From a virus: 64,000 nt of DNA. Every line of letters starts with the position of its first letter. The stretch's first letter is position 1. The translations under genes were made by a program, and so were the position numbers. The notes beneath the pieces were generated by a model. The model was not told the origin of the DNA and did no database searches. It saw nothing but the letters and a program-made list of their open reading frames with translations. Shown piece after piece: positions 49,704 through 63,451 of this stretch. Location of the stretch: the IMG/VR virus record IMGVR_UViG_3300036766_000359, positions 128,973 to 192,972 of that record, one strand, 5' to 3'.

Positions 49704-50204
49704 TTGATTGGACTGACTGCCCTTATGACTATCGAAGAAATCGAAACCGAACTTGGGACGCGTATACTACTGTTGACACACGGTGGATCGCTCAAAGTAA
49801 CGCATACCAACAGTGGGTTGGTTCAGATTTGCGTAGGCGGAATCAATCCGCTAGAGTTGACATTTGACTCACGAGAAGCACTTACACTCATCGAGTTTCT
49901 AGCTATTGCGCTGAAGCCAAGCTCAAATAATCAAATCATAACTCTGAACGAAGAAAATAATGGCGACGGAAAATGGACACCCAAATGTGGGTTGTCTCCG
50001 TACAGAGTCATCTGTGCATCTAGCCATGAGTGCGGCAAGCAATATCTAACGTTCCGTGCGTATGAAGATCAACTACATGCACAATGTGATCGTTGGGCAT
50101 GTCCGGAATGCGGCTACGAAGCAACTTGGGATAGCGCATGGTATGAAGGATATGCAGAAGAGATCAGAATCGAAGAATCCTCGAATAGAAAAAAGTTTAA
50201 ATGA
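49704..50204 (+). CDS. hypothetical protein with C-terminal Zn ribbon
   Basis: C...HEC...CPECG. Confidence 0.5.
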   Translation: MIGLTALMTIEEIETELGTRILLLTHGGSLKVTHTNSGLVQICVGGINPLELTFDSREALTLIEFLAIALKPSSNNQIITLNEENNGDGKWTPKCGLSPYRVICASSHECGKQYLTFRAYEDQLHAQCDRWACPECGYEATWDSAWYEGYAEEIRIEESSNRKKFK

Positions 50205-51538
50205 TCCCGAGATACTCACCACCCGATATTTTTGAGATATGGTCGGATTCACACCGATTGTCCTTGTGGACATCAATAGAACTTGCCGCTTGTTTGGCTA
50301 TGGAGAATCACGGGATTGTTCCATCCGGAACTTCGGCGGTCATAAGGTCCGCAGTATACTTCGACGACATATCTGGAAGAACTTTTTCACGGTTGAGTTT
50401 GCGTCGTGTCGCAGACCTCGAAAAGACGACACATCATGATTTCATTGCCTTTCTTGCTCACCTTGAGGAACTGGCAGGCGACCCGGCTCGATGGATTCAT
50501 CATGGGATGACTTCGAGTGACGTCGTTGACACCGCTCTCGCCATTCAGATCAGAGAAGTTTCTGATCTACTTCTTCAGCGAATATTTAAGTTTTCCGAAT
50601 CATTAGCTAACCGCGCTTCTGAACATTCGTCGACTCCTATCGTCGGTCGTTCTCACGGGATGCACGCTGAGCCTACTACAGTCGGATTCATCCTTGCTGG
50701 CCATCGCGCTGAAGTTTTGCGCGCTTATTACCACTTAAAAACTGCATCTGAGGGGATTGGAGTAGGGAAGTTATCTGGTGCTGTCGGCACGTATGCTCAT
50801 TTTCCTCCGGAAGTGGAAGAAGAGGTTATGCACTCTTTCGGTCTCCGACCAGAAAGTGTATCAACACAAGTCGTAGCTCGTGACAGGCACGCCGCTTGGA
50901 TGCAATCTCTCGCTCTCGTAGCCTGTTCGATTGAACGTATCGCTCTAACGATTAGACACTGGCAACGCACAGAAGTTGGAGAAGCAGAAGAGGGATTCAA
51001 ACCTGGTCAGATGGGGTCTAGTGCGATGCCGCATAAGCGGAACCCTATCGTAAGTGAAAATTTATGTGGACTTTCACGTTTGGTAAGGGGATACGTAGGT
51101 CCAATGTTGGAGAATTGCACGCTTTGGCATGAACGTGACATTTCTCATTCATCCGTCGAAAGAATCGCAATACCTGATTCATCCTGCATTCTTGGTCACA
51201 TGCTAGACCGTGCGATCGATTTGATTGATAATCTGGTCTTTTTCCCTGAAAGAATGTCTCGGAATCTTGAAATGTCAGGAGGGCTTATTTTCTCTGAGTC
51301 AATCCTTCTTGCGTTGATTGACCTTGGATGCCCGAGACAAGAGGCTTATAAAGCCGTACAACGCTGTTCAATGATGTCTTGGAATGGTGAAGGTTCATTC
51401 CGCAGTTTACTATCTTCTGACCCGTACACAGGTCCAAAAATTGGTAAAAATCTGGACGACCTGTTTGATGCAACACTTGCAACAGCCCACATGCCTCTAA
51501 TCGTTAGGCGGGCTCTCGACATTAAAATTATTAAATGA
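50201..51538 (+). CDS. purB: adenylosuccinate lyase
   Basis: MIPRY start, HDFIAF, IH.G.TSSD, GRSHG.HA.PTT, GSSAMPHKRNP signature, WHERDIS.SS.ER. Confidence 0.95.
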   Translation: MIPRYSPPDIFEIWSDSHRLSLWTSIELAACLAMENHGIVPSGTSAVIRSAVYFDDISGRTFSRLSLRRVADLEKTTHHDFIAFLAHLEELAGDPARWIHHGMTSSDVVDTALAIQIREVSDLLLQRIFKFSESLANRASEHSSTPIVGRSHGMHAEPTTVGFILAGHRAEVLRAYYHLKTASEGIGVGKLSGAVGTYAHFPPEVEEEVMHSFGLRPESVSTQVVARDRHAAWMQSLALVACSIERIALTIRHWQRTEVGEAEEGFKPGQMGSSAMPHKRNPIVSENLCGLSRLVRGYVGPMLENCTLWHERDISHSSVERIAIPDSSCILGHMLDRAIDLIDNLVFFPERMSRNLEMSGGLIFSESILLALIDLGCPRQEAYKAVQRCSMMSWNGEGSFRSLLSSDPYTGPKIGKNLDDLFDATLATAHMPLIVRRALDIKIIK

Positions 51539-52917
51539 CTATTCGACACTCATACTATGATAAAATTTGGCTCGATATCGCTGATGTCGTTGAATCAGAC
51601 AAAATCGCATTCACGAAGCGATGCATGAGTATTATCTCAGCTCTCGACCTTAGTATATCATCTCCATCGGAGAAAAACAGAGAGGTATATGAATGTGCCA
51701 TCAAACTAATTAATCTTCCGGATGTAATAGCATTAGAACGTTTCGAAGAGATTGATCATAGAAGTAAGCGTGAAGCACTAAGTCGTGAAACTCGTATTAA
51801 GTTGGCACATCGAATTGAATTGCGCCGATTTTATGCTGTGCACTTGTTTGTTCAAATGTGTGGTAGACTCAGTAGTTCTACCGATACCTTGAGTCATTTT
51901 ACTCAAGTGATTCTTGATAAATTCAATAAAGACGCTTTAGAAATGGGATATAGTAAGCAGGACGCTCGAGAAAATGCGACCACACAAACGATTTTTCATT
52001 TTAGTCTTGCGTTGTTTGCAAATAACGGACGACCAACATTTGTTCCAAGTTCTGGTTTAACAGAGTCACTCATCTACACTGAGTTTCGTGATGTTCCATC
52101 GGAGATGGTTCAACTTCCACACCCAGCGTTGTTCATTGAAGCCCCACTAAAATCGGGCCTCTTCATTCCAAATGCAGAAAGTGGGTTACATGAACTATAT
52201 GGCGCATTCGTTGTTGCACATAACGAACTAAATGAATCAGATGAGTTTAATGAAAATAAAAGACTTCAAATAGTTCTTGTCGGGCACCCGAAAGAATGGG
52301 GGAAGGAAACACATAATCAACTGACGGCCAATAATCATCTATTTAACGATGCACTATTTCATTTCAGCATCATCTTAAAGCCACACTCCACCGTTGGTGA
52401 TTGCATCAAAGGAACGGTTGATGGTCTAGATGCATGGGATGGTGTTTTAAATGATGATCGGAGGTCAGTTAACTCGATGGGCGATTGGATGGGTGAAGGT
52501 TTCGAAAATTGCGTAAGATTTGTACTTAACACCCTGTTGTATATAACGTTGCCCGACACGGAAATTGACTCGGTATTTTCAGACTCAGATATACCTGATC
52601 TGATGACGAAGTTATCTAAAGCACCGAAGGGCTCTAAGAAGCGTTCGACCATCAACGAACAACTCAAGAAGAAAAGTCACCATAAATACATGCTTCTTGG
52701 TTCTTCAGTTAAAATTGACCGTTCTTCCAGGACAGAAAGTGGCGAAGCGCACGCGAAAGGACATAACCACAAACTAAGTGTGGCGTTTATTCGACGGGGT
52801 CACTGGAGGAATCAACCGTTCGGTATGGGTCGTAAACAAACACGGATCAAATGGATTAAACCGACGATGGTAAACCCCGATGGACCCATGAAAATCACGA
52901 CTTATATGATCGAATAA
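51535..52917 (+). CDS. large hypothetical protein with C-terminal RRGHWR motif
   Basis: FIRRGHWRNQPFG...KWIKP.MV tail. Confidence 0.7.
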   Translation: MTIRHSYYDKIWLDIADVVESDKIAFTKRCMSIISALDLSISSPSEKNREVYECAIKLINLPDVIALERFEEIDHRSKREALSRETRIKLAHRIELRRFYAVHLFVQMCGRLSSSTDTLSHFTQVILDKFNKDALEMGYSKQDARENATTQTIFHFSLALFANNGRPTFVPSSGLTESLIYTEFRDVPSEMVQLPHPALFIEAPLKSGLFIPNAESGLHELYGAFVVAHNELNESDEFNENKRLQIVLVGHPKEWGKETHNQLTANNHLFNDALFHFSIILKPHSTVGDCIKGTVDGLDAWDGVLNDDRRSVNSMGDWMGEGFENCVRFVLNTLLYITLPDTEIDSVFSDSDIPDLMTKLSKAPKGSKKRSTINEQLKKKSHHKYMLLGSSVKIDRSSRTESGEAHAKGHNHKLSVAFIRRGHWRNQPFGMGRKQTRIKWIKPTMVNPDGPMKITTYMIE

Positions 52918-55069: not shown

Positions 55070-55135
55070 CAGAACATTTTCGTAAATTTCGTAATAAAAT
55101 TTGTACCGGTTGGTGTAGAATTTAAAATGGACGCT

Positions 55136-55278
55136 TGTAAGAGATTGCTGTCGCTGAAATTGGGTCGCCTCCACGGCCTAAAGGCGAGGTGTGAACAACA
55201 CGCTCGCCAAGTAGATGTGAAAACATCTACGTTAACCTTCGGGTTAGATTTCATCCTGGGCAACAGCAATCTCTTACA
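55136..55278 (+). ncRNA. candidate tracrRNA/scaffold RNA for the type V effector
   Basis: 16-bp terminal inverted repeat, GAAA and UUCG tetraloop hairpins, 11-nt anti-repeat ATTTCATCCTG (55248-55258) plus CTCCA (55169-55173) complementary to the repeat. Confidence 0.65.
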
Positions 55279-55301
55279 GGTGTTCAGTGTGAAGAGGTAG
55301 T

Positions 55302-56870
55302 ATGACTGAACGAAATGCTTGTCGCAATTGTGGTATTATAAAGGCAGACGGGCGGTGTCCATCATGCATCGTCACGGCTGTGCTTATGGAGATCGTGAAA
55401 CCCACATCAGAAAACTGGGACGATTTCGGAGATCAACTTCGCGGTCTTCGAAGTCTCACTCATCGAATGCTTAATGCTGCGATGATTGGCCTTGTGTCTG
55501 ATCTTCACAATCGGGAAAGTAAGAAGGATTGTGCCGGTTTCACCGATTTAAGTTTTTGGCGAGAAGTTGATCTCCATAATCGTGACACAAGTCAGGATAT
55601 TGACTCAGGTCAGAGCACTTATAAGCATATTAATGCTGAACTCAGATCCTATTCTGCTTGGTGCGCTGGTCAACGTCAACAGAAACAAGAGGCTTTGGAT
55701 TCTAGTCAACTGGCATTATTGAAAGCTCGGCCAGGTAAAAATAAGGAAAAGTTGACTGCGGACGTCACTCGTTTTGACAACGAGGTGAAAAGACTTGCTT
55801 CCCGTGAAAACTTGGCGTCTACCATGTCGATGAGCATGGTTGCCTGCCTCGGCAAAACAGCTGACGATAAATTCAGACAGTGGCTAAAAGTTCGGATCGA
55901 AGAACGTCTTCCCATGTATAAGAAGAAGTCTCCGATCATGCTTAATAATATGGACGTCAGGATTCAACTTATTGATAAGTCATCCGTTCAAATGAGTTTG
56001 AAGCTCCGTAGTAAGGGTACAACTCATGTTATTGCATTACCCGTGAGTGGGTCAGCATGGCAAGCGATGCGCTTGGTTGCGTCAGGTGCGGCCAAACATG
56101 GAGCCGGTAAAATCACTTACGACGAAGCTAAGAAGAAATGGTTTCTACGTTTGACGATCATCCGTCCACGTCCACAACGTCCACCCATGAACTCCGATGT
56201 GGTTTTAGCGGTAAATCGTGGTCGCAACAATTTCTTATATGCAATTTCTAATGACGGGCGTACTTCCCGGGTCATATGGCCTGGTAATGATATTCTTCAG
56301 TTCAAAAAGAGCATCCGGGCTCGAACACTGGACCTGAAACGGATGCGTCACCATCGTGGCAGTGGTGCTCATGGACACGGACGTGATCGATTTTTCGCGT
56401 CTGAAACCAGACTCAAAGACTACGAAATAAATTTCGTTAGAACTCTTTGCCAAAGAGCTGCGGCTGCACTGGATCAGCAAGCTCGAGAAATTGGTGCCGG
56501 GACTATAGTCATCGAAGACTTTAACACAATTGATTCAGAAGACCTTCGTTATGTTATGAGTTGGCCATGGTATCAACTCAAACAGGCAATCGCCTGGATG
56601 TGTGAGAAAACTGGTCGTACACTCGTTGAAGTGCCTAGTGAGTATATCAGTTCTGAGTGCCCGAATTGCGGGAATCGGGATGTTAGCCAAGTTAATCATC
56701 TTGGAATATTTCATTGTAAAGGGCACTGCACTGGATATAAGAATGGGTTCAGTCGCGAATCAGATTTCGTGGCTTGTTATACAATGTTGCGACGATCCAA
56801 TGTTGATATGTCAGGTTGGGATCGTTACTTCAAAATTACGGATAAAATCTCAGCAGAAGCAGCAGAATAA
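55302..56870 (+). CDS. TnpB/Cas12f-like type V effector, RuvC-I Asp replaced by Asn (putative nuclease-dead)
   Basis: VLAVNRG (N305), IVIEDF (E405), CPNCG...C...C Zn finger, RESDF.AC (D488); WED-like KKWFLRLTI; adjacent CRISPR array. Confidence 0.85.
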   Translation: MTERNACRNCGIIKADGRCPSCIVTAVLMEIVKPTSENWDDFGDQLRGLRSLTHRMLNAAMIGLVSDLHNRESKKDCAGFTDLSFWREVDLHNRDTSQDIDSGQSTYKHINAELRSYSAWCAGQRQQKQEALDSSQLALLKARPGKNKEKLTADVTRFDNEVKRLASRENLASTMSMSMVACLGKTADDKFRQWLKVRIEERLPMYKKKSPIMLNNMDVRIQLIDKSSVQMSLKLRSKGTTHVIALPVSGSAWQAMRLVASGAAKHGAGKITYDEAKKKWFLRLTIIRPRPQRPPMNSDVVLAVNRGRNNFLYAISNDGRTSRVIWPGNDILQFKKSIRARTLDLKRMRHHRGSGAHGHGRDRFFASETRLKDYEINFVRTLCQRAAAALDQQAREIGAGTIVIEDFNTIDSEDLRYVMSWPWYQLKQAIAWMCEKTGRTLVEVPSEYISSECPNCGNRDVSQVNHLGIFHCKGHCTGYKNGFSRESDFVACYTMLRRSNVDMSGWDRYFKITDKISAEAAE

Positions 56871-56877
56871 AGGTAAT

Positions 56878-57471
56878 ATGAAAACAAACACTGAAATTAG
56901 TCAAAAAGATACTCAACTACTCAACAAGATCGTCATTGATCTTCAGCGAGTCAAAAACCTTAATGACAAGGCGGATATCGAGTTTTTTCTGAAACTACGT
57001 GATATATCGATTAAGCATAAGGAGTTAATTGAACGCGGGCATGGATCTGTGTTCAGTTTTTTCAGCTCAAAGGGCCTGAGTCCCGCCCCTCAGTTCAAGA
57101 GCTTCTTGAGGGGTCTCTCCTTCATTGATGATCCGACAGCCAAGAAAGTAGGTCTATCGGTAGTCATGGCATTGGCTAAGACTCAGCATAAAAAACAAGT
57201 TCATGAAGTCGTGCGCTTGGCACTCGAGCATTTCAGTGCTCACTCAGTTCAACCGAACGATCGCCAAGCAAAAGCGATCATGATGACGGCTGGAGCCCGA
57301 GAAATCATTGCGCGGGGACCAACGATCGCGTCTCAACTTCAGCGACGCATCAGTCAGCTTGAAGCTGAAAATGAACAACTTCGCGCGGATCTCAGATCTG
57401 AGCGTCGTCTTAAGGTTCAGTTTGAGCGTCGTCTTGCTCAGTATGAAAAGTCCGGCAAACGCGCTGCATGA
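56878..57471 (+). CDS. unknown 197-aa protein between effector and array; C-terminal coiled coil
   Basis: starts 7 nt after effector stop with AAGG RBS. Confidence 0.7.
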   Translation: MKTNTEISQKDTQLLNKIVIDLQRVKNLNDKADIEFFLKLRDISIKHKELIERGHGSVFSFFSSKGLSPAPQFKSFLRGLSFIDDPTAKKVGLSVVMALAKTQHKKQVHEVVRLALEHFSAHSVQPNDRQAKAIMMTAGAREIIARGPTIASQLQRRISQLEAENEQLRADLRSERRLKVQFERRLAQYEKSGKRAA

Positions 57472-57661
57472 TGCGAGAGACTCTACGGCACTTCATATGC
57501 CGTAATCGCTCGCACGTTTGAAGTTCTTTGACATTTTAATAATCAGGCTATGAAACCTCATAAACCGGTGGAGACGGTTTATGAGGTTCAGAATTTCAGT
57601 TGAACTGAAACCGTGAAACAGCGTGATTGTAAGTTTGAAATCGAAGTGTACTGATGGCACT

Positions 57662-58781
57662 GTCGAAATCGAGATCAGAACAGGATGAAATTGGAGCAAA
57701 ACGATTGGCCACATTTAATTGGACTAACGACCAAGTCGAAATCGAGATCAGAACAGGATGAAATTGGAGCAGGGCATGGTTTTTCATACCTATACTTTTT
57801 AAGTCGAAATCGAGATCAGAACAGGATGAAATTGGAGCGACGGACGACAGGGGTAGTGAGGCCCAACGGGATATCAGTCGAAATCGAGATCAGAACAGGA
57901 TGAAATTGGAGCCGCTGCCAACCATCTATCAAATCTCACGACTTCTAGGAGCGTCGAAATCGAGATCAGAACAGGATGAAATTGGAGCAGCCACTTGTTC
58001 CGAGCAACCAAATAATGGGTCCCGACGTCGAAATCGAGATCAGAACAGGATGAAATTGGAGCGCTTTGCGGAGCAGACCGTCGCGGTGGGCGCGGTGATG
58101 TCGAAATCGAGATCAGAACAGGATGAAATTGGAGCCTCGTCGGGGTGGTCAACCACTCCACGCGCGATCGCATCGGGATCAGAACAGGATGAAATTGGAG
58201 CAGGCAGTCGCTCATGAGTTCGTCGATTGTGCGCCCAGTCGAAATCGAGATCTCACCACAGCGATAGCCAGGTCGAAATCGAGATCAGAACAGGATGAAA
58301 TTGGAGCTCGTAGACAGCCTGGAGCCCGTGTCGAAATCGAGATCAGAACAGGATGAAATTGGAGCAGGCGTCTGCCAAGGAACGTCGGAATCGAGATTAA
58401 AACAGGATGAAATTGGAGCAACCGCGTGTCCAATGGCTGTGACCGCAGGTCGGAGGGTCGAAATCGAGATCATAACAGGATGAAATTGGAGCCTGCGCGA
58501 GCAAACGCCAGTCCTTGGTGACGACAAAGGTTGAAGTCAAGATAATAACATAATGAAATTGGAGCGCCTTGTTGATGGTTAGGTCGATTGGATCGGCCTG
58601 CGTCGAAATCGAGATCAGAACAGGATGAAATTGGAGCATACAGTGGCGCGTCATCGCCCCAATGCTGCTCGTCGTCGAAATCAAGATCAGAACAGGATGA
58701 AATTGGAGCTAGTGCTGAGAGAATCGTTGGCGGATCAGATGAGCTGTTGAAATCGAGATCAGAACAGGATGAAATTGGAGC
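57662..58781 (+). CRISPR. CRISPR array, 17 repeats (one truncated), 16 spacers of 18-40 nt
   Basis: 36-nt repeat GTCGAAATCGAGATCAGAACAGGATGAAATTGGAGC; degenerate copies accumulate on the right, so leader is on the left. Confidence 0.97.
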
Positions 58782-61298: not shown

Positions 61299-61865
61299 TT
61301 ATGCGACACCGAGTGCTATAGCAACCATGTCTGCGATACCGTCAAGTCCGTTATCTGACGGATCACCGACGAATCCTGATGGCTGAATGTGCCATTTTGA
61401 GAAATATTCTTTCAAGACGTCATCCGTTCCATCGATAAGTGGTATCCCCATGGCCTGAGCTTTCATTTGAAATACAAGATGAGTTGAGTCAAGGTCGTCT
61501 ATCAGTACGAAGTTGTTTTCTCCCCTTCCAACTTTTCCAATCAGACTTTCGCGAGGAAAAATCTCATCAACATCAAATCCGAAAGCTTCGGATATCGTGT
61601 TAGCATATTCAGACACTGAATGAGTAAGAAGATAAATTGGACCGAAATTAAAACCCCGTAACGATTTTAACAATTCAATCGCTCCGGGTCTAAGCATCAC
61701 TCCATATTTCCCGATTTGCAACTTTTCACCGGGATAATTGGTGAAAGCCATCACGGATGCTCGGTCGTCTAACATAACAGTATGAATGAGTGTCTCGTCT
61801 AAATCAACATAGACACACGTTCCTATGCTCATTGCTACTCTCGCCGCTATCTTGATGAAATTCAT
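61299..61865 (-). CDS. HAD-family phosphatase, FCP1/NIF-like
   Basis: [11 protein letters not shown] (DxDxT), LRPGA..LL, YLLTHS...YA, LIDD. Confidence 0.75.
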
Positions 61866-63451
61866 ACCGGTGGAACGGATGAATATTGAACAGTTTGATC
61901 AGACGTGTTGTTCATATTGATCGTGTAGTATCTGAAGTTAATTCCGTTCGTAGTAAACTTAATCACTAACTTTCCGGAGAGCGTCAAATACATCGCCATC
62001 TGACCAGCACCCGGATTCGTTGGAGGTCCGAAAGACGGATTCATGGCGATCGTGGACAACGACCTGAAGTTGGACGCTGATAGATAACCGAACTCGTCAA
62101 AGAAGAACCCGAAACCGTTGGACATCGTCCAGCGCATCGTCTTTCCTGACTGGTCATCTATCTCGAGCCCGGTCACACCGTCGCCATTGTACTGCATTTT
62201 TAGACCGGCTAGCGGTGACTCACCACCAACCTGTCCATCTCGAGTCCAGTGCACTCCTCCGTTATGGATTCGAAGTGACATTCCTGAATAAACATTCGGG
62301 TGTCCAATGCCAATTTGTCCGAATATTCCGTCCGAAGGGGTGTTTCCAGAATAACACCAAATGTAGCGTGGCCCAGCAGTCGGGATACCAACCGCGTAAT
62401 CGAACACTGCGGCTTGTCCAGTTATCGGACCCGTCATTCCGGTTGGGGCATATAAGATAGCAGCCGGGTTAGCAGGCCCGATTTGTCCAGTTGGTCCTAC
62501 GGGTCCAGTTGGTCCTGCTGCCCCGGTGGCTCCTCGTACACCAGTCGGTCCTTGTATGCCGGTGGCTCCCGGTGGTCCTCCTGCGGGTCCTGTCGGACCA
62601 ATCGGCCCCTGAAGTCCTCCTGCGGGCCCTGTCGGCCCCCGGGGCCCTGTCGGCCCTTGGGGCCCTGTCGGCCCTACTTGCCCGGTGAACCCGACCCCTG
62701 TGGCTCCTTTTGGTCCTGTTGGACCCGTCGAGCCTTTTGGTCCTGTTGGACCCGTAGGACCTAAAGGACCCGTAGGACCTAACGGCCCTCCTAATGGTCC
62801 TGTAGCCCCCGTGGCTCCTATCGGACCCGTGGGGCCCGTTGGTCCTTGAGGTCCCGTGGCTCCTGTGGCTCCTTGAGGTCCCGGTGGCCCTCCTAACGGT
62901 CCTGTGGCTCCCGTTACGCCCTGGGGTCCTTGAATGCCCTGTGCTCCCGTTACTCCGGGAAAACCAATCGGGCCGTTAGGTCCTGTCGGTCCAAGCCCTC
63001 CCGTTGGTCCTTGCTGTCCGACGGGACCGGTTGAGCCTTGCGGACCGATTAACCCGACGGTTCCTGCTGGTCCAACCGTTCCTGCTGGTCCAACCGTTCC
63101 TGTTGGTCCAATGGGTCCTGGAATGAGAATAGTTCCTGAAGCTCCTCCCGTAAGAAGGACTGCGGAGTTCACATGAGCAAGATCGACCGGTAATCCTTTT
63201 AGAAGAAGTGTTATGTAAAACGTGAAGCTTTGTCTTAGGCCCTCAGCACGTGCATCAATTAATGCAAGTGACCCTATTTCGTATAACTCCGGGTTCAGTC
63301 CTACGGCTTCAGCGAGTTGGTTGTATATGGTTGGTTGTGCGAAAACTAGTGTAGGGCTACTGATGCCCTCATCAGTTATCATTTCCGCAACAACCCGATA
63401 GACGTCCGGGATGTCTTGTACGACTTTTTGAACAACGACTGATGTGGACAT
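61862..63451 (-). CDS. collagen-like (Gly-X-Y) protein, probable virion fibre
   Basis: more than 200 aa of GPTG/GATG/GPQG triplets between globular ends. Confidence 0.85.

Follow-up and report, generated by a model that had tools for sequence, protein, structure and literature searches.

We found that a 64,000-nt stretch of viral DNA (positions 128,973 to 192,972 of the IMG/VR record IMGVR_UViG_3300036766_000359; this whole stretch is called the window below) carries a compact type V CRISPR locus, whose Cas12f1-like effector lacks the first catalytic Asp of its RuvC nuclease site and belongs to a clade without that residue. Together with a trans-activating CRISPR RNA (tracrRNA), a repeat array and a helical partner protein, the effector constitutes a variant of type V-F (Table 1). 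We consider it fairly probable that this is a tracrRNA-dependent type V-F derivative which binds DNA without cutting it and which phages use chiefly against other phages and against mobile elements. An initial annotation of the locus had proposed a multi-guide RNA-directed non-cutting DNA binder; array, tracrRNA and partner agree with this proposal, while loss of cleavage and silencing are treated here as predictions.

The 522-aa protein of TnpB/Cas12f architecture described in that annotation was recovered as an open reading frame (ORF) and by domain, PDB and fold matches, and its E405 (IVIEDF), D488 (RESDF) and zinc finger were intact as stated, RuvC-III being complete. Domain searches returned the Cas12f1-like TNB domain and guided-TnpB. 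AsCas12f1 was the best PDB match by sequence (E = 1e-30) and ranked first by fold (E = 1.7e-25) when we searched with the AlphaFold model, which has a predicted local distance difference test (pLDDT) score of 81; Cas12m occupied ranks 25–29 of the same fold search at E ~1e-10, compared with 1e-25 for AsCas12f. PADLOC labels the protein Cas12u3/Cas12f (Cas12u3 4.6e-41), and it has the size (400–550 aa) and the WED/REC/RuvC/TNB fold of the TnpB-like type V-F1 effectors. A scan of GTDB led only to distant Thermococcus TnpB. At the N-terminus (residues 7–23; 55302–55370) a CxxC-CxxC Zn-ribbon was seen with low confidence, with a weak Spt4/RpoE''-like match, and only a few members of the clade have it. 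A shorter, 494-aa start of the effector was dropped, as the upstream ATG has a Shine–Dalgarno (SD) sequence and the Zn-ribbon is common to P0002.

In HMMER alignments N305 falls on the catalytic Asp of GIDLG in AsCas12f1 and, in the dead mutant of that protein (8dzj), on Ala. Because AAT is retained in three independent assemblies (L024, L025 and L026, 99–100% identical) and Asp is absent clade-wide, N305 is not a sequencing error. The Asp-to-Asn change reported in the initial annotation is therefore real, but it is not a one-off, since the whole clade lacks Asp and His is its commonest residue. N-R-G was read in all nine closest homologues, and R306 and G307 are invariant among close members. 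A profile search gave 400 representatives at E <= 1e-30, and we tallied the catalytic residues in the best 150 together with the first hits. At RuvC-I we counted H in 100 sequences, R in 26, N in 24, K in 2, L in 1 and D in 4; Asp in close homologues, which had been named as evidence for a sequencing error, was thus seen only in outgroup Cas12f, to which all four of these sequences belong. RuvC-II is E in 130 of 156 covered sequences (83%; otherwise D, G, A or Q), and 155 of the 156 have D or E at RuvC-III. On the tree the non-Asp proteins form a 74-member clade (FastTree support 0.994) with Asp-bearing Cas12f as sister group. Inside this clade the RuvC-I residue switches several times, including to Arg and Lys, which are unable to bind metal; a small N-F/M-G group branches apart with weak support. 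From the tally and the tree we conclude that selection stripped the metal-bridging carboxylate and spared the rest of the pocket. In Cas12m2, which has His at RuvC-I and binds more tightly, His317 and Asp579 hold a single Mg gripping the non-target strand; there is no second Mg, and the protein no longer cleaves (PMC10442227). By analogy we infer a loss of cleavage for the effector studied here.

The candidate tracrRNA named in the initial annotation was confirmed by its fold and by comparison of loci. Its minimum free energy is -87.9 (z = -10.1), none of 200 shuffles was equally stable, it contains internal hairpins, the region is conserved at homologous loci, and 17 of 45 consensus pairs show a compensatory change in a comparison limited to four sequences. 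Repeat and anti-repeat covary across 11 loci whose repeats are highly divergent: the stretch complementary to the repeat, or the longest one where there are several, falls on repeat positions 20–31, no matter if it precedes the effector, separates the two genes or follows the partner. In 9 of these 11 loci the 3' end of the repeat has another complement, of 5 nt, further upstream. The tracrRNA pairs twice with the 3' half of the repeat, as in type V-F1; such bipartite tracrRNA:repeat pairing is the Cas12f1 arrangement. Degenerate arrays in L001 (5768–6077 and 8127–9017) and L003 (5547–5970) retain only the ~16-nt handle at the repeat 3' end, with irregular spacers of 5–100 nt, and because they keep only that part we regard it as the working handle. 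The first handle in L003 is joined straight to the tracrRNA and resembles a natural single guide, and at L030 (1600–1720), where no array of regular form was seen within 4.5 kb, only short degenerate handles lie between the effector and partner genes. An Rfam search gave no match. A 57-aa ORF over the tracrRNA was dropped in favour of an RNA because of the covariation. The bipartite motif GNARRY-N15-GTAY was counted 55 times in the window (70–55106) compared with 5.2 +/- 2.6 times in shuffles, about 10-fold over chance; its last copy is the one preceding the tracrRNA and, judging from the sequence, is probably the promoter of the cassette. A scan for sigma-70 promoters stayed at chance level.

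The small ORF behind the effector, which had been put forward as a possible new partner, adjoins the effector in all 16 testable independent loci (window, L001, L002, L003, L008, L009, L021, L022, L023, L030, L031, L035, L036, L072, L075 and Rctr197k) and in none of the Asp-bearing loci. The match in L031 is partial and weak, and L006/7 and L074 were excluded, ending less than 300 nt after the effector. This linkage spans the N, H and R subclades and also holds with a hidden Markov model (HMM) of the N-domain only, without the coiled coil, and when the most divergent match of the partner was taken as the starting point, the search ended at an H-type Cas12f once more, stop and start codons overlapping. 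The partner is thus obligate to non-Asp Cas12f. Virus Rctr197k (L070; KX853510.1, 119281–121844) carries an H-E-D effector (gp117) with the partner (gp118) upstream and a CRISPR array, beside which the effector is annotated only as 'transposase-like protein'. The model of the partner is all-helical with a C-terminal coiled coil of ~47 residues (pLDDT 88.7). The family is present in none of Pfam, PHROG and PADLOC; ten members had no Pfam match, and the cut-off of DUF3102 (PF11300) was not reached. Foldseek and language-model searches indicate, for the N-terminal domain of the partner, a weak likeness to DUF3102 and to ParB/Noc-type helix-turn-helix (HTH) domains, with three DUF3102 proteins among the top 14 Foldseek viral matches (weak, E 0.18–0.45; atlas feature score 0.90–0.91), and a wide fold search of the PDB returned generic coiled coils only. 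Our best guess from the model is that the partner may be a DNA-binding dimer. No longer or fused forms of it were found, which is weak evidence, and among the neighbour genes of the window and the related loci we saw no recurring gene for a sigma factor, transposase or nuclease. A 289-aa ORF from 56602 was discarded, being merely the partner frame running back into the effector. At L072 (1–225) the effector is preceded by a short ORF which, judged by eye, resembles a CopG/ribbon-helix-helix repressor.

The array had been described as one of 17 repeats, and this number holds if the half-repeat is added to the 16 full or degenerate ones; some of its spacers are truncated. An array close to the effector is also typical of type V-F1. 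Near-identical effectors, differing by 2–3 substitutions, are found in the window, L024, L025 and L026, and in their arrays one to three spacers at the leader end vary, and the three long arrays have a common trailer. Because the leader-end spacers differ by strain and the trailer is common, acquisition is polar and the array is live. The lack of cas1, cas2 and cas4 reported for the window extends to the whole 193-kb record, in which we found no Cas1, Cas2 or Cas4 at a CheckV completeness of 45%; Cas1 was also missing from five relatives, two of them more than 90% complete. In 10 of 11 loci the leader has a CCGCTCGCAA-like motif 53–55 nt ahead of the first repeat, in the window in a degenerate form, and the strict pattern is in phase in 6 of 11 loci compared with a background of 0.5%. 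Most leaders also contain a TTGAAA/CGAAAT core near -27. Host integrases read phased leader motifs ~50 bp upstream together with integration host factor (IHF) (bioRxiv 2023.05.26.542337), and we infer that the array acquires spacers in trans through host Cas1–Cas2.

Concerning targets, the initial annotation had suggested silencing or rewiring of host or competitor genes. For host genes this was not substantiated, as the window array gave no target, and the only target in the family lies in a related phage. We observed no protospacer for the window array in its own 193-kb genome, in INPHARED phages or in plasmids, and no exact IMG/VR match for window spacers 3, 4 and 8/14 or a sister-strain spacer. 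Self-targets were likewise missing from the 193-kb record and from five records related to it. Spacer 8 matches G001 over 16 internal nt, but its flanks mismatch, and we dropped this match as chance. Spacer 2 (57771–57802) read on the reverse strand looks like a gene start with SD and ATG. Among 132 family spacers, spacer 7 of L003 matches 20 of 21 nt, from its first base, in phage L008 and in 13 further IMG/VR contigs, with looser similarity past a 5-nt gap. The 5' flank of these targets, known from this single homologue spacer, is CTG in 13 cases and TTG in one. This target lies in a Cys-rich, Zn-finger-like gene just upstream of the gene for the small terminase; the copy in L003 itself departs from it at three synonymous positions, of which two fall in the seed. 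A pattern of inter-phage competition has been described for viral arrays (PMC11656645), and by analogy the case of spacer 7 would fit it. Spacers 6 and 7 of L003 (5796–5878) are alike, possibly by duplication or by targeting of one gene in two phages.

From these data we propose the following mechanism. A phage promoter, of which the motif was seen, would drive tracrRNA, effector, partner, leader and array as a single cassette, and host Cas1–Cas2 would insert new spacers at the leader end, where the polar turnover was observed. The ~17 nt at the repeat 3' end would pair twice with the tracrRNA, as in Cas12f1 and as the covariation indicates. The ribonucleoprotein, probably a dimer like AsCas12f1, would open an R-loop of ~20 nt beside a 5' T-containing protospacer-adjacent motif (PAM), which appears to be (C/T)TG in one case. 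Without the RuvC-I Asp a two-metal site should be unable to form, so that the target would be blocked for transcription or replication and not cleaved; N or H and the retained Asp of RuvC-III probably bind a single metal and hold on to the displaced strand, like His317 and Asp579 of Cas12m2. The partner, probably a DNA-binding protein dimerised by its coiled coil, would most likely stabilise or extend the block, or else autoregulate the cassette.

Several observations weigh against this proposal. For no spacer of the window was a protospacer found in the databases searched, phage-targeting rests on one spacer of one homologue among ~130 tested, and the only target lies in a coding region and not in a promoter. 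The leader motif of the window is degenerate although its array still acquires, and the partner can be assigned to a fold only weakly (Foldseek E > 0.04, atlas score 0.91). Another reading, which we regard as rather unlikely, is that the non-cutting binder acts, in the manner of TldR or the phage 'dCas14', chiefly on genes of the host or on the programme of the phage itself. The GC content of most spacers (50–70%, against ~45–50% for the phage), the trailer spacers common to strains and the gene-start-like spacer 2 would suit such control, and there are parallels in a huge-phage Cas14 without a catalytic residue, which has a spacer against the host glycyl-tRNA synthetase (PMC7162821), and in a dCas12f cluster with guides to efflux promoters (PMC13472631). 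Yet there is no self-target in the 193 kb or in the five related records, the only target found is a phage, and the fast turnover at the leader end resembles immunity and not fixed regulation.

Binding without cutting must further be compared with an N/H-E-D site that is rearranged, not dead, and that serves for nicking, for cutting single-stranded DNA or RNA or for processing the system's own RNA, perhaps only once the partner has completed or activated it. We hold this to be unlikely: the metal-bridging residue toggles between H, N, R, K and L, some members show a decay of RuvC-II as well, with G, A or Q in its place, and exchanging the first Asp for Asn is a standard way of inactivating RNase H-fold nucleases. 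Cas12m2, with His at this site, does not cut either (PMC10442227). A rearranged but active site would nonetheless explain the retention of E and D in most members, with the RuvC-III Asp nearly invariant, the invariant R306 and G307 and the intact zinc finger, and Altae-Tran et al. hold that conserved single-motif changes may keep activity (PMC10691335). It is quite improbable, in our estimate, that the effector is a targeting module only and that the output comes from the partner, either by recruiting a host or phage machine (a nuclease, RNA polymerase, or a partition or condensation factor) or as a leader-binding factor through which host Cas1–Cas2 can add to these arrays. The obligate and often translationally coupled linkage, the HTH-like domain and coiled coil that would suit an adaptor, and the usual position of the partner right beside the leader speak for this, as do dCas12f-sigmaE and Cas12k, dead effectors that recruit partners; against it, the partner has no catalytic motif, no gene for a sigma factor, transposase or nuclease recurs nearby, and the leaders have their own phased motifs for host integrases with IHF (bioRxiv 2023.05.26.542337). 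Several degenerate repeats and some truncated spacers are all that suggests a sequencing error or a decaying relic, which is refuted by AAT in all assemblies, intact ORFs, fresh spacers and clade-wide conservation and seems to us barely credible. Tentatively, with the odds against it, non-cutting Cas12f and its obligate helical partner could represent a so far undescribed type V subtype of two proteins that is common across environmental phages and forms a guide-programmed machine with a new output; for example, the partner may drive the system to spread or condense on the DNA of rival phages, or may redirect host Cas1–Cas2 so that the phage array stays updated.

Compared with known systems, the locus would work like Cas12m, descends from Cas12f1 and lacks a defining feature of each, as well as of dCas12f-sigmaE, TldR and Cas12k. 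It shares with AsCas12f1 (type V-F1, former V-U3; PDB 8j12, 7wju, 8dzj) the size class, the zinc finger and the bipartite tracrRNA:repeat pairing, and its 5' PAM may likewise contain T. It differs in the clade-wide loss of the RuvC-I Asp (N-E-D here, H, R or N across the clade, in place of the intact D-E-D triad), the obligate partner of ~200 aa, its phage-borne location, a long covarying stem that encloses the tracrRNA and, in the window member, the N-terminal Zn-ribbon. The non-canonical RuvC-I residue with the RuvC-III Asp kept (His in 100 members, Asn here) and the predicted non-cutting binding in mobile-element conflict recall Cas12m (type V-M; Cas12m2, PDB 8hhl; PMC10442227); the lineage is different, though (Foldseek TM ~0.26), and Cas12m uses a single CRISPR RNA and has neither a tracrRNA, which is present and covarying here, nor such a partner. 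Naturally dead Cas12f exapted with partner genes is also known from dCas12f-sigmaE of Bacteroidota and an array-linked dCas12f cluster (Hoffmann et al., PMC13472631), and L003 likewise fuses tracrRNA to a half-repeat. The dCas12f-sigmaE proteins are C-terminally truncated, which takes out part of RuvC, and come with rpoE and hth, whereas here RuvC is full-length, the arrays are live, and neither rpoE nor hth is adjacent among the neighbour genes of the window and related loci. Closest in setting is the phage 'dCas14' (Al-Shayeb et al. 2020, PMC7162821), a huge-phage V-F effector minus one catalytic residue, without adaptation genes and with repression proposed; that case is a single untested remark on a host-targeting spacer, with no partner described, and the N/H-R-G motif is absent, by eye, from the Cas14i/J/K sequences of the accompanying fasta. 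TldR and Cas12k are RuvC-inactivated RNA-guided DNA binders as well, but TldR has a single omega-RNA and no array, in contrast to the array and separate tracrRNA here, and Cas12k (type V-K CAST) needs TnsB, TnsC and TniQ, of which no gene was found among the neighbours of the window or at related loci.

Dead Cas12f/Cas14 in phages already has a brief precedent in the literature, namely the phage 'dCas14' (PMC7162821), the array-linked truncated dCas12f cluster (PMC13472631) and altered-site Cas12f/V-U branches (PMC10691335). A literature search that stopped short of the Altae-Tran supplements (V-U24/43/44) and of Al-Shayeb 2022 returned no paper on the H/N-R-G clade with its partner. The clade is large, with well over 100 clusters at 50% identity, and its phages appear to have kept updating guides and given up cutting. 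It allows two questions to be tested, whether binding by itself is enough for immunity of phage against phage, and by what route arrays that lack Cas1 go on acquiring spacers. The partner is a new Cas-associated protein family, and a naturally dead effector of 450–520 aa with a repeat handle of ~17 nt could serve as a compact scaffold for CRISPR interference or recruitment.

Table 1. Positions of the locus features in the window
Feature	Position	Strand	Remarks
Bipartite promoter-like motif GNARRY-N15-GTAY	55082-55106	+	ends 15 nt upstream of tracrRNA
tracrRNA	~55121-55293	+	inverted repeat, fold stability, covariation
tracrRNA closing stem, 34 bp	55121-55154 with 55260-55293	+	inverted repeat
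Short anti-repeat, 5 nt	55169-55173	+	complement of repeat 3' end
Long anti-repeat, exact 11 nt	55248-55258	+	pairs repeat positions 20-30
Cas12f1-like effector, 522 aa	55302-56870	+	RuvC triad N305-E405-D488; C4 zinc finger; REC insertion
N305 codon AAT in place of RuvC-I catalytic Asp	56214-56216	+	VVLAVNRG
Partner gene, 197 aa, basic, isoelectric point 10.2	56878-57471	+	starts 7 nt after effector stop
CRISPR leader, 190 nt	57472-57661	+	degenerate phased motif at ~-52; TTGAAA core at -27 from first repeat
CRISPR array, 16 repeats of 36 nt (several degenerate) and one 5' half-repeat at 58238	57662-58781	+

The locus was taken as phage-borne in the initial annotation, and the major capsid, portal and terminase genes of the source record, a 193-kb fragment of a huge phage, agree with this. 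Its capsid protein is 74% identical to that of the 485-kb uncultured phage LR745208.1. A 460-aa ORF (51535–52917, +) lies 2.4 kb from the type V locus; its counterpart on a sister contig carries a precomputed match to PF26125 ('AcrVA2-like', anti-Cas12a-like), and our Pfam search with the ORF itself gave no match. The window also contains an adenylosuccinate lyase (purB) auxiliary gene (50201–51538, +) and a gene for a 529-aa collagen-like G-X-T repeat protein (61862–63451, -). In smaller phages (L002, L003, L008, L009 and contigs of P0007/P0009) the cassette is often found just upstream of the terminase genes.

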